Assembly (NCBI GenBank): GCA_937877715.1
Contig: CALEHW010000046.1
Span: forward strand, 89,690-153,689
Origin: an uncultured Methylophaga sp.
Lineage (GTDB): Bacteria; Pseudomonadota; Gammaproteobacteria; GCF-002020875
Length of the DNA stretch: 64,000 nt
Direction: 5' to 3'
Shown here: piece after piece, positions 9,858-63,294 of the stretch
Numbering within the stretch: position 1 is the stretch's first letter
Layout: the number at the start of each line of letters is the position of its first letter
The notes under the pieces: generated by a model
Told to the model about the DNA's origin: nothing
Seen by the model: only the letters and a program-made list of their open reading frames with translations
Database searches by the model: none
Position numbers and translations under genes: made by a program

Positions 9858-10739
9858 CTACCCTTGAACCTGGGCCATCACCTCATCTGCAAAATTTTCC
9901 TCTTTCTTCTCAATACCCTCACCAACCTCGAAACGGTCAAATGAGACAATGGTTGCACCATTGGCATCCATCAGTTTGGCAACAGTCTGATCCGGGTCCT
10001 TCACAAAAGGCTGGCCCAACAAGGTCACCTCATTAACAAACTTCTTCATCCTGCCTATTACCATCTTCTCGATAATATTTTCAGGCTTGCCACTCTCGGC
10101 CGCCTGGGCAGAGAATATCTCTCTCTCCTTATCCAAAACCTCGACAGGAATATCCGCCTCGGAAAGAGCTACTGGACGACTTGCAGCGACATGCATGGAG
10201 ACATCCTTAGCCAACACGGCATCACCGCCCTGTAGCGCAGTCATTACTCCGATACGACCACCATGCGAGTAGAATCCGATCACACCATCATCTGAGTCGA
10301 TGATGGAGAAACGACGTACAGTCATATTCTCACCGAGCTTTGCAATCAACTCCTGACGACGCACCTCAACAGTGGTCGATCCACCGGAGAGATCCATATC
10401 ATTAAGAGCGGCCACATCAGCTGGCGACCCAGAGAGAACTGTTGCTGCGATCTGGTTGGCAAACTCGATAAACTCATCACCTTTTGCGACAAAATCGGTC
10501 TCACAGTTAACCTCAACCATAACCCCGCAGGAGCCATCATCACTAACACCAATCGCCACAATACCATCTGCCGCAACCCGTGACGCCTTCTTGTCAGCCT
10601 TGGCCAGACCAGACTTTCTCAGGTTCTCAATTGCCGTATCTATATCGCCATCAGTCTCTACCAGAGCCCTCTTGCACTCCATCATTCCGGCACCGGTACG
10701 CTCACGCAGTTCCTTTACCTGACTCGCTGTAATTGCCAT
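9858..10739 (-). CDS. tsf: Elongation factor Ts
   Basis: 293 aa with N-terminus [26 protein letters not shown] (UBA-like EF-Ts signature). rpsB-tsf synteny. Confidence 0.9.
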
Positions 10740-11632: not shown

Positions 11633-11821
11633 AATAATATCTCTCCAGTTTGGGTTTTGCCTCCGTATACCCCATAACCCCAATCCCTTATTAAGGACAC
11701 CCGAGCTTATGGTGGTGGCATACGTGTGAAATTAAATTACACTTTCTCTCACAGAAAATGCGCGCGAAGTATACTACGTACTTTCAATGCAGACAAACAG
11801 ACTTTCCTTGCTACCCTGCCT

Positions 11822-12595
11822 ATGAGCATCACCATCAAAACTGCCGAAGAGATTGAGAAGATGCGCACAGCCGGCCGCCTTGCTGCTGATGTGCTAATGA
11901 TGGTTGAACCATACGTTGTGGCAGGGGTTACAACCGAGGAGCTGAACCGGATCTGCCACGACTATATTGTCGAGACCCAGGAGGCAATCCCCGCCCCTCT
12001 CGACTATCATGGCTTCCCCAAATCCATCTGCACATCAATCAACAATGTTATCTGCCATGGAATCCCCAGCCAGAAAAGGCTGAAAAAGGGAGATATAATC
12101 AATATTGACATAACTGTCATCAAGGATGGTTACCATGGCGATACCAGCAAGATGTTTGCCATCGGCAAGCCATCCATCCGGGCCCAGCGCCTGCTGCAGA
12201 TCTCCAGGGAGTGTCTACTCAAGGGAATTGAACTGGTAAGGCCAGGGACTCACCTTGGTGATATTGGATATGCTATCCAAAAACATGCGGAGAGATACCA
12301 TTTTTCCGTGGTCCACGAATATTGCGGCCACGGCATCGGCAGGGATTTCCATGAAGAGCCCCAAGTTCTCCATTATGGTGACAAGGGCACCGGTCCAGTT
12401 CTGCAGAGCGGGATGACCTTTACAATTGAGCCGATGATCAATGCCGGCAAGCGCCACAGCAAACTGAACCCCAAGGATGGCTGGACCGTAACCACCAAGG
12501 ACCGCAGCCTCTCCTCACAATGGGAGCACACCCTGCTGGTCACAGATGACGGTGTGGAGGTTCTGACCCGTAGAGAGGAAGAGGATGATCTCTGA
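11822..12595 (+). CDS. map: Methionine aminopeptidase (type I)
   Basis: The conserved MAP start MSITIKTAEEIEKMRTAGRLAA lies at the ATG at 11822. The pita-bread fold metal ligands are visible (D..D..H..E..E pattern). It is divergent from rpsB, the classic map/rpsB arrangement. Confidence 0.9.
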   Translation: MSITIKTAEEIEKMRTAGRLAADVLMMVEPYVVAGVTTEELNRICHDYIVETQEAIPAPLDYHGFPKSICTSINNVICHGIPSQKRLKKGDIINIDITVIKDGYHGDTSKMFAIGKPSIRAQRLLQISRECLLKGIELVRPGTHLGDIGYAIQKHAERYHFSVVHEYCGHGIGRDFHEEPQVLHYGDKGTGPVLQSGMTFTIEPMINAGKRHSKLNPKDGWTVTTKDRSLSSQWEHTLLVTDDGVEVLTRREEEDDL

Positions 12596-15239
12596 CCCCC
12601 TGCTCGCCTCTCTCACCAGTATATTTGAGAGCAGTCCTCTCAAGCCAGAGAAGCTCAGGGAGGTTCTGCAGAGTGGTCGGGAAGAGATTACCCGGCAATT
12701 TCATGACGGGGTCTCTGCACGGCAATTGCTCAGGGCACGTAGTGATCTTATCGACTCCACCCTGCAGGGAATCTGGCAGCTTATAGGCCCCAACAGCCCG
12801 CAAACCGCTCTGGTCGCTGTAGGTGGATATGGCCGCAGGGAACTCCACCCCTTCTCCGATATCGATCTCCTGATCCTGGCAGAAGATAGTGACGACCCTG
12901 CCACCAGCAGCGCCATCAGCACCTTTGTCACCATATTATGGGATCTGGGGCTGGAAATTGGCCACAGCGTTCGCTCAATCGCCCAGTGCGTCGACGAGGG
13001 CCGTGCAGATATTACAATAACTACCAATCTGCTTGAGGCGCGGCTGCTCTCCGGCTCAGCAGAATTCTTCAATCAGCTGCAGCACAGCATTTCAGATGAC
13101 TCCATCTGGCCCAGCGGCCCCTTCTTCATCGCCAAGCGCAATGAACAGCACGCTCGTCTGGAAAAATACAATGATACCGCCTACAACCTGGAGCCAAACA
13201 TCAAGGAGGGACCAGGGGGACTGCGAGATATCCAGAATATTCTCTGGGTTACCAGACGCCATTTCGGCGCAACCAACCTGGATCGGGAATCAGGGACTCT
13301 ACGTGAACTGGTCGATCACCACTTCCTCACCACGACCGAATGTGCCGATCTGGAGGCTGGACAGGAGCGACTCTGGGAGATCCGTTTCGCCCTCCACCTG
13401 ATTGCCGGGCGTGCAGAGGAGCGGCTGCTGTTTGAGTACCAACCGGAGCTGGCACAATATTTTGGCCATCTGGACAGTGGGCATAATAGAAGTGTTGAGT
13501 CATTCATGCACAGCTACTTCAGGATTATACGCGAGCTCTCACTGCTCAACGAGATCCTGCTGCAGCTGTTTGAAGAGCAGCTGCTGACCCCAGACAGTGA
13601 AAAACAGCCTCTTCCTGTAGATGACAATTTTGGTAGCAGCGGAGGCTATCTCACCCTGCTGGACCAACACGGACTGGAGAGAGAGCCCTCCCTGATTCTC
13701 TCCCTGTTTCTGATACTACGCGACCACCCGGAGATCAAGGGAGTTGCTGCAGAGACCATCCGGCAGGTCCGCGCGGCGCGCCACACCATTGACCCCAAAT
13801 TTCGTAACAATCCCAGGCATCAACAGCACTTCCTGCAGCTCTTCTACCAACCAGAGGGGTTGACCCACCAGCTACGACGGATGAACCGCTACGGTGTTCT
13901 CGGCGCATATCTACCTGACTTCGAGAAGATTATAGGGCTGATGCAGTATGATCTATTTCACGCATATACCGTGGATGAACACACCCTGTTTGTAGTACGC
14001 AATCTGAGGCGGCTGACAATCCCCGAATTTCATCACGAGGCTCCTCAGCTTAGTAAGCTGATTGCAGAACTACAACACCCTGAACAGATCTATCTGGCAG
14101 CCCTCTTCCACGACATTGCCAAAGGCAGAGGTGGAGACCACTCAAAACTGGGAGTGGAGGTTGCCAAGAATTTCTGCAAACAACACCAGGTAGACAGTGA
14201 AACCACTACAGAAATCAGCTGGCTGATTGAGAACCATCTGATCATGTCCGCCTTTGCGCAGCGCAACGATATTGATGATCCGGCTGAGATCCACACCTTT
14301 GCCAATATGGTCAAACAGCAGTCCAGACTGGATATGCTCTATCTGCTCACCGTTGCCGATATCAGGGCAACCAACAGCACCCTCTGGAATCATTTCAAGG
14401 ATTCACTGCTGTCACATCTCTATAACTCAACCTCAGAGGCGCTGGAACGTGGCCTCAGCCAACCCGAAGACAGTGATGAGAGAGGGGTGGAGAACCGCAA
14501 ACAGGCCCTAGAGCTTCTTGATGGTGATGGAATCAATAACAAACAGGCTGAATCACTCTGGGAAGAACTGGATGACGAGTATTTCCAAAAACATGACGCC
14601 AGAGAGATCAGCTGGCACACTAGGTCCATTCTGGGAAATCAGCAATATCCCCTGATCAGGTTTCATAGAAAAAGTCATCATGGAGGCAGTGAGATCCTGA
14701 TCTACAGCAGAGATCAACAGTTTCTCTTTCCCATTCTGGTCCATGCCATGGAGTCTCTTGGGCTCAATATTCAGACAGCAAAAATCAATACAACCCTGAA
14801 TAGTTATGCCCTCAACATCTTTACTGTACTGGACAGAGATGGCAAAACAGTCCAGGATGAAAAATCCATATCCAGGATCAAACAGACTCTACACAACGAG
14901 ATCGAGCACCCAACCCTGCTGGCCCAGCCAGTCACTTTCCGCAAAACCCGCCACCAGAAACATTTCCATGAAGAGAGTGAGGTGCAATTTCAGCAAGATG
15001 AATCGAAACAGCAGACCATTCTGGAGATCCATGCCACAGACCGTCCGGGGCTATTATCCACTATCTGCCGCATCCTGATGAATTGTAATATTCGGATCCA
15101 CGGCGCCAAGATTGCCACCCTGGGAGAGAAGGTCGAGGATCTGTTCTGGGTGACACATCAAGACAATACCCCTCTGACCAGGCAGAAAGAAAATGACCGC
15201 CTCAGTGAGCAATTAAAACAGGCGCTTGATCCACAGTGA
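12585..15239 (+). CDS. glnD: Bifunctional [protein-PII] uridylyltransferase/uridylyl-removing enzyme GlnD
   Basis: 884 aa with an N-terminal nucleotidyltransferase domain (GGYGRRELHPFSDIDLLIL), a central HD domain and two C-terminal ACT domains. The map-glnD order is conserved and the gene overlaps map by 11 nt. Confidence 0.9.
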   Translation: MISDPLLASLTSIFESSPLKPEKLREVLQSGREEITRQFHDGVSARQLLRARSDLIDSTLQGIWQLIGPNSPQTALVAVGGYGRRELHPFSDIDLLILAEDSDDPATSSAISTFVTILWDLGLEIGHSVRSIAQCVDEGRADITITTNLLEARLLSGSAEFFNQLQHSISDDSIWPSGPFFIAKRNEQHARLEKYNDTAYNLEPNIKEGPGGLRDIQNILWVTRRHFGATNLDRESGTLRELVDHHFLTTTECADLEAGQERLWEIRFALHLIAGRAEERLLFEYQPELAQYFGHLDSGHNRSVESFMHSYFRIIRELSLLNEILLQLFEEQLLTPDSEKQPLPVDDNFGSSGGYLTLLDQHGLEREPSLILSLFLILRDHPEIKGVAAETIRQVRAARHTIDPKFRNNPRHQQHFLQLFYQPEGLTHQLRRMNRYGVLGAYLPDFEKIIGLMQYDLFHAYTVDEHTLFVVRNLRRLTIPEFHHEAPQLSKLIAELQHPEQIYLAALFHDIAKGRGGDHSKLGVEVAKNFCKQHQVDSETTTEISWLIENHLIMSAFAQRNDIDDPAEIHTFANMVKQQSRLDMLYLLTVADIRATNSTLWNHFKDSLLSHLYNSTSEALERGLSQPEDSDERGVENRKQALELLDGDGINNKQAESLWEELDDEYFQKHDAREISWHTRSILGNQQYPLIRFHRKSHHGGSEILIYSRDQQFLFPILVHAMESLGLNIQTAKINTTLNSYALNIFTVLDRDGKTVQDEKSISRIKQTLHNEIEHPTLLAQPVTFRKTRHQKHFHEESEVQFQQDESKQQTILEIHATDRPGLLSTICRILMNCNIRIHGAKIATLGEKVEDLFWVTHQDNTPLTRQKENDRLSEQLKQALDPQ

Positions 15240-15583
15240 GCCATAAAGAAGATAATCCATTTATGGCCACTTGGTCGAAACAGGGGCACACCATCTGCCT
15301 GGGACATTGGGAGATCAGCTATCATGGTCAACCGATAGAGTTGCCGCCCACTAAACGTGACGAGGAGATGGGCACCTTTGGAATCTACAGTTACCTCTAT
15401 CCCGACGACCCGGATTTTGCCGAGGGTCTTGAGGAGGATGAGTGGATCCTGGAAAACATGGAGTGGATCGCCCCTCTGTTTGAAGAAAGTGGTATCCCCC
15501 TAGATGAGAAGCACCTTGGGTGGTTCTATCAGGCAATAAACATGGAGGATTGGCGCTGTGGAAGTTGTGGCGGTTGTATATAA
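15236..15583 (+). CDS. Hypothetical small acidic protein, translationally coupled to glnD, ending in a Cys cluster (CGSCGGCI)
   Basis: 115-aa ORF whose ATG overlaps the glnD stop (ATGA). The composition is protein-like (acidic, Trp-rich). I recognise no family. Confidence 0.45.
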   Translation: MSHKEDNPFMATWSKQGHTICLGHWEISYHGQPIELPPTKRDEEMGTFGIYSYLYPDDPDFAEGLEEDEWILENMEWIAPLFEESGIPLDEKHLGWFYQAINMEDWRCGSCGGCI

Positions 15584-15666: not shown

Positions 15667-16905
15667 ATGGAAAGTTACATTCAGGAGCTATTCGCAGAAC
15701 GCATTGGCGGCAACCAGTTTGGTAAAGACACCAATATCTACAAGTTCGAGAAGATCAAACGTGCCAAGCGGGCAGCAATGGAGGCCAACCCCACCACCGA
15801 GATGATCGACATGGGGGTTGGGGAGCCAGACTGGATGGCTGAGCCCGAGGTTATTGAGGTTCTCTACCAAGAGGCCAAAAACTGGGAAAACCGTGGCTAC
15901 ACCGACAATGGGATACAGGCCTTTAAGGATGCTGCTGCCGTATATATGGATAGTGTATTTGGGGCAAACGGGCTGGATCCAAACAGTGAGATTAACCATG
16001 GAATTGGCAGCAAACCGGTGCTTGCCCTGTTGCCCATGGCCTTCATCAATCCTGGTGACATCACCATAATGACCACCCCTGGATACCCTCTGCTTGGGAC
16101 AACAACTCAGGGACTTGGTGGCGAGGTGGTAAACCTTCCACTCCTTGAAGAGAATGGCTTTCTGCCAGATCTTGATCAACTGACTGATGCACAGAAAAAA
16201 CGGACAAAACTCCTCTATCTGAACTACCCAAACAACCCCACCGGTGCAGTTGCCAGCGAAGAGTTCTACAAAAAAGCAATCCAGTTTGCCAAAGAGAACG
16301 ACATAATGATTGTCTCCGATGAGGCATATGCTGCATTGATGTTTGACGGGGAGAAACCACTCTCATTCCTCAGTGTTGAGGGGGCAAAAGAGGTAGGTGT
16401 CGCCATTCAATCACTCTCCAAAGCCTACAACATGACTGGCTGGCGTCTGGCATTTATTGCTGGCAATGAGCTAATGGTGAAGGCATTTGCAGCTGTTAAA
16501 GACAATAATGACTCTGGTCAATTTGCAGCAATCCAGTATGCCGGAATCTACTGCCTGCAACACCCGGGGATTACCGAAAAGACAAGTGCCAAATACTCCA
16601 GAAGACATGATTTATTGGTAGATGCACTCACCAATGCAGGATTCGAAATCAAGAAGCCAAAAGCCACTTTCTATCTCTACGTCAAGGCACCAACCGCCAC
16701 CAGGGATGGGATCACTTTTGACAGTGGTGAAGCGTTCTCACAATACCTGATCAAGGAGAAGATGATATCCACCGTCCCCTGGGATGATGCCGGAAATTAT
16801 GTCCGCTTCTCCGTCACCTTTGTTGCCAAGGATGAGGCTGATGAAGATAGGGTGATTGGAGAGATCAAAAAGAGACTTGGAAATGGAGAGTTTGTTTTTG
16901 ACTAA
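15667..16905 (+). CDS. dapL: LL-diaminopimelate aminotransferase-like PLP-dependent aminotransferase (class I fold, DapL family)
   Basis: 412 aa. Blocks NYPNNPTGAVAS, DEAYAAL and SLSKAYNMTGWRLAF (the PLP-lysine region) align well with DapL-type LL-DAP aminotransferases as I remember them. It occupies the slot after map-glnD where dapD/dapC normally sit. Confidence 0.6.
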   Translation: MESYIQELFAERIGGNQFGKDTNIYKFEKIKRAKRAAMEANPTTEMIDMGVGEPDWMAEPEVIEVLYQEAKNWENRGYTDNGIQAFKDAAAVYMDSVFGANGLDPNSEINHGIGSKPVLALLPMAFINPGDITIMTTPGYPLLGTTTQGLGGEVVNLPLLEENGFLPDLDQLTDAQKKRTKLLYLNYPNNPTGAVASEEFYKKAIQFAKENDIMIVSDEAYAALMFDGEKPLSFLSVEGAKEVGVAIQSLSKAYNMTGWRLAFIAGNELMVKAFAAVKDNNDSGQFAAIQYAGIYCLQHPGITEKTSAKYSRRHDLLVDALTNAGFEIKKPKATFYLYVKAPTATRDGITFDSGEAFSQYLIKEKMISTVPWDDAGNYVRFSVTFVAKDEADEDRVIGEIKKRLGNGEFVFD

Positions 16906-16928
16906 TTCCTAAGCCAATACAATAGTAA

Positions 16929-16965
16929 AAAGCCCCATGAATAAGCACCATGGGGCTTTTTTTGT
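16929..16965 (+). terminator. Rho-independent terminator after the aminotransferase gene
   Basis: aaaaagccccatg-aataagcac-catggggcttttttt is a perfect GC-rich stem followed by a 7-T run. It sits in a convergent intergenic region, so it also works for tsaB on the other strand. Confidence 0.65.
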
Positions 16966-46795: not shown

Positions 46796-48688
46796 TTAGG
46801 CTGCCTCGCCTTCCTGTCCCTCATGATCCTCATCGAACAGGTGATACAGTGGAGCCTTCTCCATAGTGTACTCACCAGTCTTTGGATCACGGCGAGAAAC
46901 TGTCAGAACATGCCAGTTCTTATCATCCAGCTTCATTGCGTCACCACGGTAGTAGTAACCAGGCCAGCGAGTTTCCTTACGGAACAGGGTGTGCTGCATT
47001 ACAGACTCGGAGGCAAGCAGACGATGCTTCAGCTCCCATGCGCGCAGCAGCTCATGAATATCAGAAGCAGCAATCTTCTCCATATCCTCTTCCAGAGTCT
47101 TCATCTTCTTCAGACCGATGTTCAGCAGCTTATCGTTAGTCATGTAGTTCACCGTTACACCACCAGCGTACTCGTCCATCATCTTCTGCATACGATCAAG
47201 ACCTTGACGTGGGTTGATGTAGTTAGGGTTAACAGTTCCAGCAACGATATCGTTACGGTAAACTTTATAGTGCTCCATTGGTTTGTAGATCTCTTCCTTG
47301 CGATCATTGATCTGCTTCTCAGAGATGGTAATTCCATTGGCCTTACCATCATCGATGTACTTGCAAGCAGCCTTGGCAGCCAAACGACCTTCGGTGAATG
47401 AACCAGAAGAGAACGCATGTGGTGTACCACCAACCGCATCACCAGCACCAAACAGACCTTCTACAGTAGTCATACGGTTGTAACCCCAGAAATACTCATC
47501 AGGAGAAACATCCTCAGGACCAGAACACCATGCACCACAACCGGTAGCGTGTGAACCCATTACATAAGGCTCAGACGTAGTCAGCTCAGGGTTCTCATAC
47601 TTTGGATTTACATCAGTTGCAGCCCAAAGTACAGCCTGACCAACTGTCATACCCAAGAAGTTGTGCCAGCCAATCTCCTCAAGGTGAGGATCCTGGAATG
47701 AGTGCATAGTAACCATGTGAATCGGGCCACGTCCTGCATTGACCTCGTTGATCAGAGCATGGTTACGCAAACATGTTGGGATTGGCTTATGAGACAAGTG
47801 CTGGTTTTCTGTATCCAGATATTCCTTACCAACCATCTCACTCAGAGCCGGGAACCACTTGGACTCATACTCCTCACCATTACAGTTCTGGGTGTAAGTC
47901 TTAAGGTGTAGGAAGTAAGCACCAACCGGGCCGTAACCATCCTTGAATCGAGCAAGTACGATACGGTTTTCCATCTGGGTCATCTTCGCACCAGCCTGAA
48001 TCATCAGACCATATGCAGATCCAGAAGACCACGGTGCATACCATACACGTCCAGCACCCTCACCAACGGAGCGAGGCTTGAATATGTTAGATGCACCACC
48101 AGCACCAACAATAACAGTCTTGGACTTGAATACGTGGTAGTTACCAGTACGTACGTTGAAACCAACAGCACCAGCAACACGATTCTCTTTGCTCTCATCC
48201 ATCAGCAGGTGAGTAACACAGATACGGTTGTAGACCTTGTCAGCAGACTTGGTAGCAGCCTCAGCCACAAGCGGCTTGTAGGACTCACCGTGAATCATGA
48301 TCTGCCAGCGACCCTCACGCAGATAGGCGCCAGTCTTCGAGTCACGCATGATAGGCATGCCCCACTCCTCGAACTGGTGTACTGCGGAGTCAACATGACG
48401 CGCCATGTCAAAAGCAAGATCCTCACGAACCATTCCCATCAGGTCCATACGTGCGTAGCGAACGTGATCTTCCGGATTATTCTCTCCGAAACGTGTTCCC
48501 ATGTAGCAGTTAATTGCATAAAGACCCTGTGCAACTGCACCGGAACGGTTGATATTTGCCTTCTCAGCAATAACGATTTTCTTGTCTTGGCCCCAGAAGC
48601 GCGCCTCCCAGGCTGCACCAGTACCGCCGAGCCCTGCGCCCGCGACTAGAACATCGATATTGTCTTCTACGATAGTTTTGTAAGCCAT
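46796..48688 (-). CDS. aprA: Adenylylsulfate (APS) reductase alpha subunit
   Basis: 630-aa FAD flavoprotein with a dinucleotide-binding N-terminus (VLVAGAGLGGTGAAWEA) and fumarate-reductase-family fold. Immediately preceded by aprB, so the stop and start are tightly coupled. Confidence 0.9.
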   Translation of the reverse strand: MAYKTIVEDNIDVLVAGAGLGGTGAAWEARFWGQDKKIVIAEKANINRSGAVAQGLYAINCYMGTRFGENNPEDHVRYARMDLMGMVREDLAFDMARHVDSAVHQFEEWGMPIMRDSKTGAYLREGRWQIMIHGESYKPLVAEAATKSADKVYNRICVTHLLMDESKENRVAGAVGFNVRTGNYHVFKSKTVIVGAGGASNIFKPRSVGEGAGRVWYAPWSSGSAYGLMIQAGAKMTQMENRIVLARFKDGYGPVGAYFLHLKTYTQNCNGEEYESKWFPALSEMVGKEYLDTENQHLSHKPIPTCLRNHALINEVNAGRGPIHMVTMHSFQDPHLEEIGWHNFLGMTVGQAVLWAATDVNPKYENPELTTSEPYVMGSHATGCGAWCSGPEDVSPDEYFWGYNRMTTVEGLFGAGDAVGGTPHAFSSGSFTEGRLAAKAACKYIDDGKANGITISEKQINDRKEEIYKPMEHYKVYRNDIVAGTVNPNYINPRQGLDRMQKMMDEYAGGVTVNYMTNDKLLNIGLKKMKTLEEDMEKIAASDIHELLRAWELKHRLLASESVMQHTLFRKETRWPGYYYRGDAMKLDDKNWHVLTVSRRDPKTGEYTMEKAPLYHLFDEDHEGQEGEAA

Positions 48689-49173
48689 TAGTGATATACC
48701 CCTTCTTTCATGATTAGGCCATTGGACTCAAGGGTGTGCAAACCACCTTCATCGAGACGAATGTATTTTGGTTCGTTAAACAGTAGCAGGTCATTATCAC
48801 GATGCTCCTGAGTTGGAGCAGGGACATCAGCAAGCTGTGGAATTTCCTGTCCCCATGGCTTTGTTGTAATAGGCGCCAGCAGATTCAGATCAGTCTCACC
48901 ATTGCGAGACTTGATGCGCCATGCGATAACACCCTTCTCCTCATCACGGTCCACACGTACAGAGTGACCCAGAGGGGCAAAGTCGGCATAACCACGAACA
49001 TCAATTGCATGGTGAGGACATGCCTTCACGCATGAGTAGCACTCCCAACACATATTAGGCTCAATATTGTAGGCACGACGATATTTATCATCGATATGCA
49101 TGATATCTGATGGACAGATATCAACACAGTGTCCACAACCGTCGCAACGGGTCATATATACAAAAGTAGGCAT
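48688..49173 (-). CDS. aprB: Adenylylsulfate reductase beta subunit (2x[4Fe-4S])
   Basis: 161 aa with two ferredoxin motifs (CDGCGHCVDICP and CWECYSCVKACP) and the AprB-specific C-terminal tail. Confidence 0.9.
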   Translation of the reverse strand: MPTFVYMTRCDGCGHCVDICPSDIMHIDDKYRRAYNIEPNMCWECYSCVKACPHHAIDVRGYADFAPLGHSVRVDRDEEKGVIAWRIKSRNGETDLNLLAPITTKPWGQEIPQLADVPAPTQEHRDNDLLLFNEPKYIRLDEGGLHTLESNGLIMKEGVYH

Positions 49174-49213
49174 AATCTTTCCTTTTTGTTTAGATTAATC
49201 TTGAATCTTAAAA

Positions 49214-50035
49214 TCAGTAGTGGCTAGGCTCTTCGCGCTTAATGCCAAGACCCATGTTGGATGGGTTTTTACCCATGTACTCAGGGATATCTGGAAATCT
49301 TGCATGCGTAGCAGCAGCAGACAGGTCAGGTATCTCAGGCAGATTCTCATTAGAACCATCAGCATGAACTGTACGCTTGTTATAAGCCGCAGCAGGCTTG
49401 AAGAACATATGGGAGAACTTAGACCAGTAAACGCCGCCGAATAGTGAAGCTGTAGAAATGATCACTAGGGCAAACCATGCTCCGGTGCCACCACCAGTTA
49501 GTGACCAACCTATAGCTGCTGTTGATGTAGCCATCAGCGAGAGGCTGAACATATCCCTTCTAAGCTTGATATTTGTCCATGTATTACCTTCTGCAGCCAC
49601 ATCAACCTTGAATACAAACCAGAACCACCAGCTACCTACGAACAAACTGATAGCACCCAGATGCCAGAACAAGTTCAATGTTGCATCGGCAGCATTATCA
49701 CCAAAAATCATCATTGCAGTTGCTGCATTAAATGAGATAAAACCATACATGGTCAACAGATGTACCAGCCTACGAGTCGGGTTACAGAACTCTCCAGACA
49801 GCGCCACATCAGTAACAACAGTCTTGACCAGAATTGAGGCAGCAGGAGCAGTTTTTGTTGCATTCTGCTTATCTTTTGCAGCTTTCTCGAAGAAGTACTG
49901 AGCACTCTTCTTGTGCATCATATCCAGCACAGTCATTACAATAACTAGCGCAATCATTACGATCACATACGTCTGCATAGACGCATATGTGATGCCGGCA
50001 TCCACTAATGACTGGATAGGGGTATTACTTAACAT
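49214..50035 (-). CDS. aprM: APS reductase membrane anchor AprM-like protein
   Basis: 273 aa with about 5 predicted TM helices and a hydrophilic C-terminal tail. It sits between sat and aprB, as aprM does in sat-aprMBA loci of purple sulfur bacteria. Confidence 0.65.
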   Translation of the reverse strand: MLSNTPIQSLVDAGITYASMQTYVIVMIALVIVMTVLDMMHKKSAQYFFEKAAKDKQNATKTAPAASILVKTVVTDVALSGEFCNPTRRLVHLLTMYGFISFNAATAMMIFGDNAADATLNLFWHLGAISLFVGSWWFWFVFKVDVAAEGNTWTNIKLRRDMFSLSLMATSTAAIGWSLTGGGTGAWFALVIISTASLFGGVYWSKFSHMFFKPAAAYNKRTVHADGSNENLPEIPDLSAAATHARFPDIPEYMGKNPSNMGLGIKREEPSHY

Positions 50036-50091
50036 AGTGTTTTCCTTTTAAAATTAAATAAAAATAAACATTAACAATAATCAAGAACGAC

Positions 50092-51309
50092 TTACTGGGC
50101 AGAGTGCCCCTTCATCTCAATCTTTACATTCTCATCATCACTAAGACTTGCATAGTAGTCCTGAAGCACCTTGGCAACCTCTGGACGACTGAAGGTAGCA
50201 GGAAGCTCCTCACCCTCAGACAACATCTTGCGTACCTTGGTACCAGACAACAGAATACGATCATCCTTGCCATGAGGACAGGTCTTCATAGAAGCCATTC
50301 CGTCACAGGCATTACACCAGAAGGTCCAGTCGATCTTCAGTGGCTTAGTCTCCAGTGCGCCCTCAGGGATTTCGTCAAAGATCGACTGTGCATCAAAGGG
50401 GCCATAAAAATCGCCGACACCAGCGTGGTCACGACCAACAATCAGGTGCGAACAGCCGTAGTTCTGGCGGAATACGGCGTGCAACAGCGCCTCACGGGGG
50501 CCTGCAAAACGCATATCCAGCGGATAACCTGCCTGTACAACACTGTTGGGAACAAAATAGTTATCAATCAGAGTCTGGATCGCCTCAGAGCGAACCTCTG
50601 CAGGGATATCACCCTTCTTCAGCTTACCCAGTGTGGAGTGAACCAGAACACCGTCCAGAGTCTCTACCGCAATTTTGGCAAGATACTCATGAGAGCGATG
50701 CATTGGGTTACGGGTCTGGAATGCCGCAATAGTATTCCAACCCTTTGACTCGAATAACGCACGGGTCTGCTCAGGTGTCATGAATTGCTCACCATAAGTC
50801 TCGGGGAATCCACCCAGAGAGAGGACCTTGATTGGACCGGCAAGATTCACCTCTCCCTGATCCATAACCATCTGCACACCTGGATGCTCCAGATCAGTGG
50901 TCTTGTATACAGACATGCACTCATGCTCTTTATCAATACCGTATTTCTCGGTAACTGTCATGGTTGCAACAATATTCCCGCTTTCCTCATCAAACAGAGC
51001 AACATCAGAACCCTCATGGGTGTTGTCGGCAGTGGCACTGTCAGTAGAGATGGTTACCGGAATTGGCCAGAACAGGCCGCTCTCCATCTTGTATGAGTCA
51101 CAAACACCCTTCCAGTCAGCGTGGTTCATGAAACCGTCAAGTGGGGTAAACCCACCGATACCCAGCATATAGATATCACCAGCCTCACGTGAGGTAATCG
51201 TTACCTTGGGCAGCGTCTCTGCGCGTGCCTTCTCATCCTCGAGGGCGATCCCCTCAAGCAGTAGCGGCTTCAACTCACCGCCACCATGTGGTTTAACTAA
51301 ATTTGACAT
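50092..51309 (-). CDS. sat: Sulfate adenylyltransferase (dissimilatory-type ATP sulfurylase)
   Basis: 405 aa with ATP-sulfurylase motifs [11 protein letters not shown] and GRDHAGVG. Heads the sat-aprM-aprB-aprA operon. Confidence 0.9.
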
Positions 51310-59951: not shown

Positions 59952-60536
59952 ATGGCCGCTCCAAAACTCCAGGTAATCCAGCTCTTTTCTAGGCTCTGCA
60001 ACAACCCTACCCCTCATACTCTGCTTGCCATTCTTCTCGCTGGCGGTATTGGAGGGGTAGTCTTCTGGGGTGGGTTCAACACCTTTATGGAGTACACTAA
60101 CACCATGGAGTTCTGCATCTCCTGTCACGAGATGGAGCAAAATGTCTACCATGAGTACAAGAAGACTGTTCACTACAAGAACAGAACCGGAGTCAGGGTA
60201 GTCTGCTCCGACTGTCACGTCCCCAAGGAATGGACAGCAAAATTGATGCGCAAGATTCACGCAACCAAAGAGCTCTACTACTGGATGACTGGTGAAATCA
60301 ACACGCCAGAGAAGTTTGAGGCAAAACGGATGGAGCTTGCAAGACGGGTCTGGGACTCTATGGAGAGCTCCAACTCACGCGAATGCCGTAACTGCCACGA
60401 TTATGGCGCCATGCGTTTCGACTGGCAGACAGAAAACTCCCAAGAATCTCATCCAGATGCAATGGATGAGGGAGACACCTGTATCGACTGCCACAGGGGG
60501 ATTGCACATCAGATGCCATATGACCCTGACGAGTAA
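59952..60536 (+). CDS. napC: Tetrahaem cytochrome c NapC (NapC/NirT family quinol dehydrogenase)
   Basis: 194 aa with an N-terminal TM helix and four CxxCH motifs (CISCH, CSDCH, CRNCH, CIDCH). Long near-identical stretches to E. coli NapC (GGIVFWGGFNT, EFCISCHEM, TCIDCH.GIAH). Confidence 0.8.
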   Translation: MAAPKLQVIQLFSRLCNNPTPHTLLAILLAGGIGGVVFWGGFNTFMEYTNTMEFCISCHEMEQNVYHEYKKTVHYKNRTGVRVVCSDCHVPKEWTAKLMRKIHATKELYYWMTGEINTPEKFEAKRMELARRVWDSMESSNSRECRNCHDYGAMRFDWQTENSQESHPDAMDEGDTCIDCHRGIAHQMPYDPDE

Positions 60537-60747
60537 TTCTCATTTGAATTGATCAAGATCAAATATTCTTACCGTATAGTTGTTGACGCAGTATATGATT
60601 TTTGAGATAAATGCCGCTCACATATGTTTATGTGGGAATAACTGACAGTATTTGTTGGTTATTCTCTGAAGAAGTCGGTAGTGGAGGGCCGACCATACGA
60701 CCTCTCCTGCCACAAATGTAAATGTAACAAAAAGAGGAGAAGTATCT

Positions 60748-63294
60748 ATGGGAATCTCTAGAAGGGACTTTATCAAGTCCAATGCTGTTGCTGCCACTGC
60801 TGCTGCAGTTGGTATCAGCGGCATCCCCGTCGTCTCTCAAGCCAAAGATGGCTATGACGCTGACGGTATCCGCTGGGACAAGGCACCATGTCGTTTCTGC
60901 GGCACCGGCTGCAGTATTCTGGTCGGTACCCGCGATGGTCGTGTAGTAGCCACCCAGGGTGACCCAGATGCACCAGTTAACCGTGGCCTCAACTGTATCA
61001 AGGGGTATTTCCTCTCCAAGATCATGTATGGCAAGGATCGTCTCGATACCCCGCTACTGCGCCAGACGGATGGCAAGTATGACAAGAATGGTAAATTCGA
61101 GCCTGTAAGCTGGGATGATGCATTCGACATCATGGCAGAGAAGTGGAAGGCTGCAATTGCCAATGACATTGCACGCAATGACAACAAATCTACTGTTGGT
61201 ATGTTTGGCTCTGGTCAGTGGACAGTCCTAGAGGGCTACGCTGCAGTTAAATTGATGAAGGCTGGCTTCCGCTCCAATAATATTGACCCTAATGCACGTC
61301 ACTGTATGGCCTCTGCGGTAGGAGCATTCATGCGCACCTTCGGCTCGGATGAGCCAATGGGCTGTTATGATGACTTCGAGCACGGTGAGAACTTTGTGCT
61401 CTGGGGTTCAAATATGGCAGAGATGCACCCAATTCTATGGTCACGTATCACCGATACTCGTCTATCCAAGAGTAATGCATCAGTTCACGTACTATCAACA
61501 TACACTCAACGTAGTTGTGATCTCGCAGACAATGTACTGATCTTTGAGCCACAGACTGACTTGGTGATTGGTAACTACATTGCCAACTATATTATCGAGA
61601 ATGGTGCAGTGGATCACGACTTCGTGAAAAACCACACCAATATCCGTCTTGCTAATACCGATATCGGTTATGGTCTGCGCCCATCTGACCCTCGCGAGAA
61701 GAATGCTAAGAACAGCTCTCCACGTAAGGCACAGGTTGGCTCCAAACCAATGAGCTTTGATGACTACAAGGCTTTTGTGTCCGAGTACACCCTGGAGAAG
61801 GCCTCCAAGATGTCTGGTGTTCCTGAGGAGAATCTACTCAAGCTCGCCAAGCTCTATGCTGACCCAAGCAAGAAGATCGTCTCTCTCTGGACCATGGGCA
61901 CCAACCAGCACACTCGTGGTGTCTGGATGAACCACTTGATGTATAACCTGCATCTACTGACTGGCAAGATCTCTGAGCCTGGTAATGGACCATTCTCACT
62001 GACCGGACAGCCTTCTGCATGTGGTACTGCACGTGAGGTTGGAACATTCTCACATCGTCTACCTGCAGATCTATTGGTTGGAAAAGCACCACACCGTAAG
62101 TTTGCAGAGAAGATCTGGAAGCTTCCTGAGGGCGCCATTGCTCCCAAGCCTGGCTACCATGCAGTATTGCAAAACCGTATGCTCAAGGATGGCAAGCTCA
62201 ACGCCTACTGGGTAATGTGTAACAACAACGTCCAGGCAGCACCAAACCTCAATGATGAGACCATGCCTGGATACCGTAATCCGAAGAACTTTATCGTAAC
62301 ATCGGATCCCTACCCCACAGTTACCGCAGTCGCATCAGATCTGATTCTGCCAACTGCAATGTGGATTGAGAAAGAGGGTATGTATGGTAATGCAGAGCGT
62401 CGTTCTCAGGCATGGCGTCAGCAGGTTCCTGCACCAGAGGGGGCAAAATCAGATCTCTGGCAGCTAATGGAATTCTCCAAGCGTTTCACCACTGAAGAGT
62501 GCTGGCCACAGGCAATTCTGGATGCCAACCCTGACTACAAGGGCAAGACCCTGTTTGATGTGCTTTACAAGAATGGCAATGTCGACAAATATGGCATGGA
62601 AGACCTGGAAGCTGGACATGACAACGAAGAGGCATTCCACTTTGGCTTCTACCCACAGAAGGGGCTCTACGAGGAGTACCGTCAGTTTGGTCTGAAGGGA
62701 CCAAAGAAGGGCCACGAACTTGGTGAATATGCAAAATATCACAAGACACGCGGTATGCGTTGGCCAGTAATTGATGGCAAAGAGACACTGTGGCGCTACC
62801 GTGAAGGATTTGATCCTCTTGTCAAAAAGTCTAACCCTGATGTTGCGAAGGGCGGTGTTTACTTCTACGGCAAACCAGATGGTAAGGCCAACATATTCTG
62901 CTGCCCTTACGAGCCACCCGCAGAGTCACCAGATGATGAATATCCATTCTGGATGTCCACCGGACGTGTACTCGAGCACTGGCACTCTGGAACCATGACT
63001 CAACGTGTTCCTGAGCTATACAAGGCGGTACCTGATGCAGTCATCTACATGCACCCCGCTGATGCGAAGAAGCTGAAGATGCATGATGGTTCCGTTGCCA
63101 AGGTAACCTCCCGTCGTGGCGATATCAAGGCGCGTATCTCAACTCGTGGCCGTAACAAACCGCCTCAGGGACTTATCTTCGTCCCCTGGTTTGATGCACG
63201 TCGACTGGTAAATAAACTGATTCTTGATGCAACCGATCCTCTCTCCAAAGAGACGGACTTCAAGAAAACCGCTGTTAAAATTACCAAGGCATAA
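60748..63294 (+). CDS. napA: Periplasmic nitrate reductase catalytic subunit NapA
   Basis: 848 aa with a Tat signal ([19 protein letters not shown]), an N-terminal [4Fe-4S] motif CRFCGTGCS and a molybdopterin oxidoreductase fold. N-terminus is highly similar to E. coli NapA. Confidence 0.9.

Follow-up and report, generated by a model that had tools for sequence, protein, structure and literature searches.

A predicted DapL-type aminotransferase encoded downstream of glnD in an uncultured gammaproteobacterial lineage

Two forms of LL-diaminopimelate aminotransferase (DapL) are experimentally anchored. DapL1, represented by the enzymes of Arabidopsis (AGD2/At4g33680; structure 2z1z), Chlamydia (CT390; 3asa) and Chlamydomonas (3qgu), converts tetrahydrodipicolinate (THDP) and glutamate to LL-diaminopimelate (LL-DAP) and 2-oxoglutarate, and DapL2 (TIGR03540) is the type of the Moorella and Methanothermobacter enzymes reportedly described by Hudson et al. 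in 2008 (as cited in PMC3390587). The succinylase branch, with DapD, DapC and DapE, is what textbooks describe for Gammaproteobacteria. The published DapL lineages comprise Cyanobacteria, Desulfuromonadales, Firmicutes, Bacteroidetes, Chlamydiae, Spirochaetes and Chloroflexi, with Gammaproteobacteria not being listed (PMC4176475), and curated reconstructions recognise several DapL forms as well as the adjacency of dapF and dapL (PMC9026213). Here, we describe a gene at positions 15667–16905 of the plus strand of a 64,000-nucleotide stretch of DNA (hereafter, the window) from a contig assigned to an uncultured Methylophaga sp. (CALEHW010000046.1). In our judgement, its product is probably a pyridoxal phosphate (PLP)-dependent, DapL-type LL-diaminopimelate aminotransferase of the PRK06290/NF004937 family, the substrate being a prediction.

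What kind of enzyme does this gene encode? The reading frame is unbroken over 412 codons from ATG to TAA, and the 412-residue product contains one Pfam domain, Aminotran_1_2 (PF00155, 175 bits), and aligns practically end to end with the equivalog model NF004937 (PRK06290, 'LL-diaminopimelate aminotransferase'; residues 1–411 on model positions 1–410 of 410, E = 7e-208). It is therefore a real gene, in agreement with the first-pass annotation, which had placed an aminotransferase at this site. The motifs of class I aminotransferases are all present, namely SLSK with Lys252, NPTG (from residue 186), SDEAY (from residue 217) and YVRFS with Arg380, and likeness to these enzymes allows putative catalytic roles to be given to the motif residues. 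An N-terminal Y-x-F motif, common to the window protein and DapC according to a reading of both sequences, would not discriminate between the two.

Family membership was judged by the whole-protein score relative to the curated NCBIfam cutoff and, for NF004937, by full-length alignment. With 690.3 bits, the protein passed the NF004937 cutoff of 585. It remained below the cutoffs of the DapL2-type models NF006756 (354 bits, cutoff 507) and TIGR03540 'DapC_direct' (352.1 bits over residues 25–385, cutoff 593), of the PatA/BacF-like models NF005977 and NF005815 (280–283 bits, cutoffs 494 and 545), of the aspartate/alanine aminotransferase models NF004611 (253 bits, cutoff 628), NF006033 (221 bits, cutoff 647) and NF041091 (174 bits, cutoff 550), and of the DapC models TIGR03537, TIGR03538 and TIGR03539 (141–180 bits, cutoffs 454, 475 and 356), the value for DapC_gpp (TIGR03538) being 141 bits against a cutoff of 474.6. 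NF004937 is the best match among the hidden Markov models (HMMs), and the protein is neither a DapC_gpp nor an ArgD-type enzyme nor a member of the aspartate/alanine aminotransferase models, all of which score under their cutoffs.

Placed side by side with the described enzymes, the protein is closest to DapL2, the second-best HMM family: The two align over nearly their full length, share fold and size class, and have in common an association with diaminopimelate (DAP) genes without adjacent genes of an acyl branch. Unlike DapL2, however, the window protein falls into the separate equivalog NF004937 and carries about 24 extra N-terminal residues. DapL1 is likewise a PLP fold-type I enzyme, and its reaction is the one predicted for the window protein, but the relationship is remote: The chains 2z1z, 3qgu and 3asa of the PDB are matched with 68–86 bits (E = 1e-18 to 1e-23), and there is no DapL1 model among the 25 best NCBIfam matches. 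None of the solved structures is closely related; the best match is the Bacillus-type PatA/BacF enzyme (BacF, 6l1l, 220 bits), yet the models of this group are missed by a wide margin and no acetylase-branch genes lie nearby. DapC_gpp enzymes, finally, resemble the window protein in superfamily, pathway stage and a gene neighbourhood downstream of glnD, but are only about 25% identical to it, and the window gene lacks the dapD and dapE flanks that accompany dapC in Ectothiorhodospiraceae bacterium 2226 (locus L082). As NF004937 is passed, the TIGR03540 cutoff missed and the DapL1 structures are remote, sequence comparison assigns the window protein to a third family named DapL, outside both experimentally anchored forms; this NF004937/PRK06290 family is a sister group of the DapL2 enzymes. 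The first-pass claim that the motifs match DapL thus holds with respect to NF004937, but not with respect to the DapL2 model or the DapL1 structures.

Gene context in other phyla provides independent evidence on function. A scan of the genome collection with the aminotransferase returned 80 loci, in all of which open reading frames (ORFs) were called and clustered; adjacency was counted in the 67 non-gammaproteobacterial loci, and homologues of dapF, dapD and dapE were searched for in 70 loci with flanks of up to 10 kb. The commonest neighbour cluster (cluster 1) was dapF, encoding diaminopimelate epimerase (TIGR00652, 316 bits). In 33 of the 67 loci it directly adjoins the aminotransferase on the same strand, in 31 of these on the upstream side and mostly 9–40 bp away, which reads as an operon arrangement, and tblastn detects it within about 2 kb of the aminotransferase in 39 of the 70. 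These dapF-linked loci span Clostridia, Halanaerobiales, Bacillales, Kiritimatiellia, Verrucomicrobiota and Desulfovibrionaceae, with the three Desulfovibrionaceae matches being only about 26% identical. The nearest non-gammaproteobacterial relatives (78–79% identity; L012 and L089) reside in lysA...dapA-STAS-aminotransferase clusters, and in L013 lysA is found upstream. Homologues of dapD or dapE occurred in none of the 70 loci within the flanks searched. This linkage to dapF, lysA and dapA without dapD or dapE supports a family role at the step from THDP to LL-DAP that would not involve acyl intermediates. Ten relatives from other phyla, with every context type included, score 688–729 bits on NF004937, so that the window protein is of the same kind as the DAP-linked proteins. 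The same reasoning from gene context has been applied to TIGR03540 itself.

Two side observations concern these loci. The gene between dapA and the aminotransferase in L012 (3130–3633) and L089 (9488–9985) is STAS/anti-sigma-antagonist-like. Furthermore, two loci with unexpected labels, L048 ('Methanomethylophilaceae archaeon') and L061 ('Senegalimassilia sp.'), have nearly all neighbour genes in common with the Fibrobacter loci L051 and L052 and group with Fibrobacter loci in the tree; both contigs probably come from Fibrobacter and were mis-binned.

Membership in the family, the gene context, the phylogeny and the synteny are observed directly. As to the reaction, we propose that the enzyme would act by the usual ping-pong mechanism, with Lys252 as the Schiff-base lysine and glutamate as amino donor. 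The amino group would be moved to ring-opened THDP, yielding LL-DAP in one step, from which DapF and LysA would form meso-diaminopimelate (meso-DAP) and lysine. Several observations weigh against this assignment. In addition to the missed DapL2 cutoff and the distant DapL1 structures, a full-text search for PRK06290 retrieved no paper and no experimentally characterised NF004937 member, and the functional name of this large family was given by inference only. Several sibling PRK-derived NCBIfam models are named alike without experimental support, in taxa relying on the succinylase branch, and we therefore did not take the name of NF004937 as evidence. Database labels differ, too, one Sporomusa copy being called 'dapL 2' and the Desulfoluna limicola copy 'aspartate aminotransferase'. 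About half of the non-gammaproteobacterial loci have no DAP gene nearby, and the Negativicutes copies adjoin genes for a MarR regulator and an amino-acid ABC transporter. In the window, asd is the sole lysine-pathway gene, 13 kb away, and no DAP gene adjoins the aminotransferase. The lack of a lysine riboswitch in the window or in seven family loci (149 kb) was counted on the same side, yet carries no information either way. In the supplementary tables of Ashniev et al. 2022 (PMC9026213), the SEED role 'LL-diaminopimelate aminotransferase, predicted alternative' is listed with peg identifiers only, which provide no link to NF004937.

How did such a gene come to lie next to glnD? The gene order of map, glnD and aminotransferase reported at first pass was borne out, with a 115-residue ORF (orf36) between the latter two. 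In E. coli K-12, rpsB is followed by map-glnD-dapD, and in Ectothiorhodospiraceae bacterium 2226 by map-glnD-(two reversed genes)-dapC-dapD-arsC-dapE, as assigned by TIGR03538 (dapC, 666 bits), TIGR00965 (dapD) and TIGR01246 (dapE). With dapD in the one and dapC-dapD-arsC-dapE in the other following glnD, genes of the succinylase branch recur in the region 3′ of this gene, and the first-pass notion of a conserved slot is reasonable. What did not stand is its strictness: Unrelated genes follow glnD in one Sulfuriflexus and one Competibacteraceae genome, and the arrangement varies within the clade to which the window belongs (11 sequences, i.e., the window and ten loci). Five of these (window, L002, L003, L004 and L006) show the co-directional order glnD, (orf36), aminotransferase; in another five (L005, L007, L008, L009 and L010) the aminotransferase is convergent on glnD; and L011 is the only member in which it lies away from glnD. 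Thus, 10 of 11 clade sequences have glnD next to the aminotransferase, and so does a more distant lineage, L088, with the order glnD-(small ORF)-aminotransferase. Since both orientations occur in the clade and the linkage is kept in the L088 lineage, the association with the glnD 3′ end is old and independent of co-transcription. The genes on the far side of the aminotransferase differ as well, and no flanking inverted repeats that would explain an inversion were found in the window. No dap genes were found near the clade loci L008, L010 and L011, whose neighbours are uppP, clpA, mnmA, cheB, amtB, trpS and similar genes. A second aminotransferase in L088 was considered as a hidden dapC and rejected, as it resembles neither DapC nor the window protein; judging from its sequence and an adjoining gene of the zinc alcohol-dehydrogenase type, it is presumably Kbl-like.

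In a neighbour-joining tree rooted with genuine DapC (100 bootstraps), the gammaproteobacterial aminotransferases are monophyletic (97/100) and nested inside anaerobe sequences, with a grouping of the gammaproteobacterial copies, L012 and L014 obtained in 69 of 100 replicates. Identity is 80–92% within the gammaproteobacterial lineage and still 64–72% to proteins of Sporomusa, Desulfoluna, Solidesulfovibrio, Halanaerobiales, Fibrobacter and many Clostridia. GlnD, by comparison, shows 53–81% identity in the lineage and no more than 49% to any of the named gammaproteobacteria compared (Ectothiorhodospiraceae, Competibacteraceae, Alkalilimnicola and Sulfuriflexus). The aminotransferase hence evolves far more slowly than its neighbour, as is seen for the L002 lineage (91–92% versus 67% for GlnD) and the L088 lineage (82% versus 53%). 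Its GC content (0.48, and 0.53 at third codon positions) is the same as that of the neighbouring host genes. The simplest reading of these data would be a single transfer from an anaerobe to the ancestor of the gammaproteobacterial lineage, and an old one, because the gammaproteobacterial copies form one clade nested among anaerobes and their composition matches the host. The recipient was probably ancestral to a deep gammaproteobacterial lineage of uncultured sulfur oxidisers. Relatives of the window organism, an uncultured gammaproteobacterium, are labelled 'Piscirickettsiaceae' or 'Gammaproteobacteria bacterium' by NCBI. The genes aprA, aprB, sat, napC and napA of the window (46796–51309 on the minus and 59952–63294 on the plus strand) indicate a sulfur oxidiser that respires nitrate.

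We propose that the acquired gene was fixed 3′ of glnD, where related Gammaproteobacteria keep dapC-dapD-dapE or dapD, and that the aminotransferase would have made the succinylase branch dispensable, followed by loss of dapD, dapC and dapE. The identity of about 25% to DapC and the absence of dapD and dapE from both the 64-kb window and 196 kb of clade sequence fit a replacement of the native genes by a foreign one, without proving it. That this free-living lineage fully lost dapD-dapC-dapE and now relies on a DapL-type enzyme captured from anaerobes, at the same glnD-downstream locus, is an idea we put forward tentatively, at slightly less than even chances.

Alternatively, the protein might be a functional DapC, i.e., an N-succinyl-LL-diaminopimelate aminotransferase that displaced only the native dapC, with dapD and dapE residing elsewhere in the genome. 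It does occupy the position that dapC holds in the related gammaproteobacterium L082, and DapC, DapL2 and PRK06290 proteins cross-match each other's models (L082 DapC scores 204 bits on TIGR03540, the window protein 141–180 bits on the DapC models), which suggests that their substrates are chemically close. Adjacency to dapF alone cannot tell LL-DAP from acyl-DAP aminotransferases, and the family has some members in Bacillales (Paenibacillus, Tepidibacillus and Vulcanibacillus), an order that usually uses the acetylase route. On the other hand, the protein shares only about 25% identity with a genuine gammaproteobacterial DapC and stays far under the cutoffs of all DapC models. Moreover, dapD and dapE are beside the aminotransferase in none of the 70 loci and nowhere in 196 kb of clade sequence, whereas the dapC of L082 is contiguous with both, and the closest relatives of the window protein sit with lysA and dapA only. 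We therefore regard a DapC function as unlikely.

Equally unlikely, to our minds, is a general aminotransferase, or one for another substrate (aspartate, alanine or some keto acid yet to be named), that has been over-annotated and whose position at glnD carries no pathway meaning. Such a reading could draw on the family name having no experiment behind it, on roughly half of the family loci being without a DAP-pathway neighbour, on the label of the Desulfoluna limicola copy, and on the best structure matches being BacF-like, uncharacterised or aspartate aminotransferases and not DapL. The gene also occurs in both orientations relative to glnD within the gammaproteobacterial clade, and once elsewhere, and glnD and a transaminase could share a logic of nitrogen metabolism apart from lysine. 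Yet tight dapF-aminotransferase operons in 33 loci from several phyla, together with the lysA-dapA clusters, are hard to account for with a housekeeping enzyme, and the aspartate and alanine models are far from being passed. Conservation points in the same direction: Very strong identity across phyla and within the clade, next to the much more variable GlnD, argues for a constrained and probably essential role.

Organisms with two DAP routes are known. A redundant second route, in which a functional DapL would sit beside an intact succinylase branch with nothing replaced, has a parallel in listed mixed pathway variants such as P34 in Acidaminococcus (PMC9026213, Table S2), but it is the least probable of the alternatives, given the retention and high conservation of the gene throughout a deep lineage and the absence of dapD and dapE from the surroundings of glnD, their place in relatives.

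Should the window gene encode a true DapL in a genome that has lost the succinylase genes, the DapL pathway would extend to Gammaproteobacteria, and one foreign enzyme would have replaced a three-step branch in situ at the ancestral locus. To our knowledge, these would be the first Gammaproteobacteria with a DapL pathway, and the PRK06290 family would receive its first physiological assignment. Irrespective of this, the dapF-operon evidence gives the name of that family an explicit and easily testable rationale. What is unusual about the present case is the host class, absent from published DapL lists, and the position at an ancestral dapCDE locus. Horizontal transfer of amino-acid biosynthesis genes as such is common, and the labels given to these genes by automated annotation are already correct or plausible, with close homologues from the same lineage (P0002, P0010, P0011 and P0013) being named LL-diaminopimelate aminotransferase by NCBI and JGI; practical consequences are thus modest.

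Turning to the architecture of the locus, the minus-strand genes rpsB-tsf-pyrH-frr-uppS-cdsA-dxr-rseP-bamA-skp-lpxD precede a plus-strand series of map (11726–12595; type I methionine aminopeptidase, TIGR00500, 335 bits, cutoff 171), glnD (12585–15239; [protein-PII] uridylyltransferase and anchor of the slot, TIGR01693, 904 bits, cutoff 519), orf36 (15236–15583) and the aminotransferase, which is followed by the convergent tsaB and yoaA. The GTG start of orf36 shares bases with the glnD stop codon (GTGA), and AGGA precedes the ATG of the aminotransferase. Between the aminotransferase and tsaB, a perfect 13-bp inverted repeat, AAAAAGCCCCATG / CATGGGGCTTTTT (16927–16961; 100% complementary), forms a hairpin edged by A and T runs, for which the terminator scan gives 14 pairs, six of them G-C; it is likely a bidirectional intrinsic terminator closing the unit. 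No promoter-like site was seen in the short gaps of map-glnD-orf36-aminotransferase. Given the GTGA overlap, the hairpin and the lack of a promoter-like site, the aminotransferase is probably the last gene of this unit, which begins with map, and co-transcribed with the rest. Across the clade, no conserved promoter or operator motif was found 5′ of the aminotransferase.

Further features of the window include a t44 RNA (11654–11746, minus strand; RF00127, 58 bits) in the rpsB leader, between rpsB and map. In E. coli, tff is found at the same position. Apart from aprBA, sat and napCA, the window encodes narXL-like genes, moaA, leuBCD, asd, trp genes and an addAB-like pair, and between aprB and sat there is an ORF of 273 residues (49214–50035) that has no NCBIfam match.

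In 7 of the 11 clade sequences, the upstream neighbour of the aminotransferase gene is orf36, which encodes a small protein. In L002, L003, L004, L005, L010 and L011, each time directly 5′ of the aminotransferase, it is 69–80% identical to the window copy; its invariant residues include a C-terminal CGSCGGCI, and orf36 is a real gene. The protein is acidic. Searches of local copies of the Pfam and NCBIfam models gave no match, and the protein belongs to PF27390 ('PM0253'), an uncharacterised family that occurs widely in Gamma- and Betaproteobacteria, where its genes have unrelated neighbours, for example an efflux pump in Sedimenticola, a preceding narGHJI in Aliiglaciecola and a preceding ffh in Novimethylophilus. 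We considered orf36 as part of a transferred 'cassette' and rejected the idea: Because its family is so widespread in Proteobacteria, in contexts unrelated to one another, orf36 is native to this phylum and was not co-transferred. In L006, orf36 is gone, and a short remnant resembling its 3′ end (9899–10001) persists 5′ of the aminotransferase, which suggests that the gene was deleted there.

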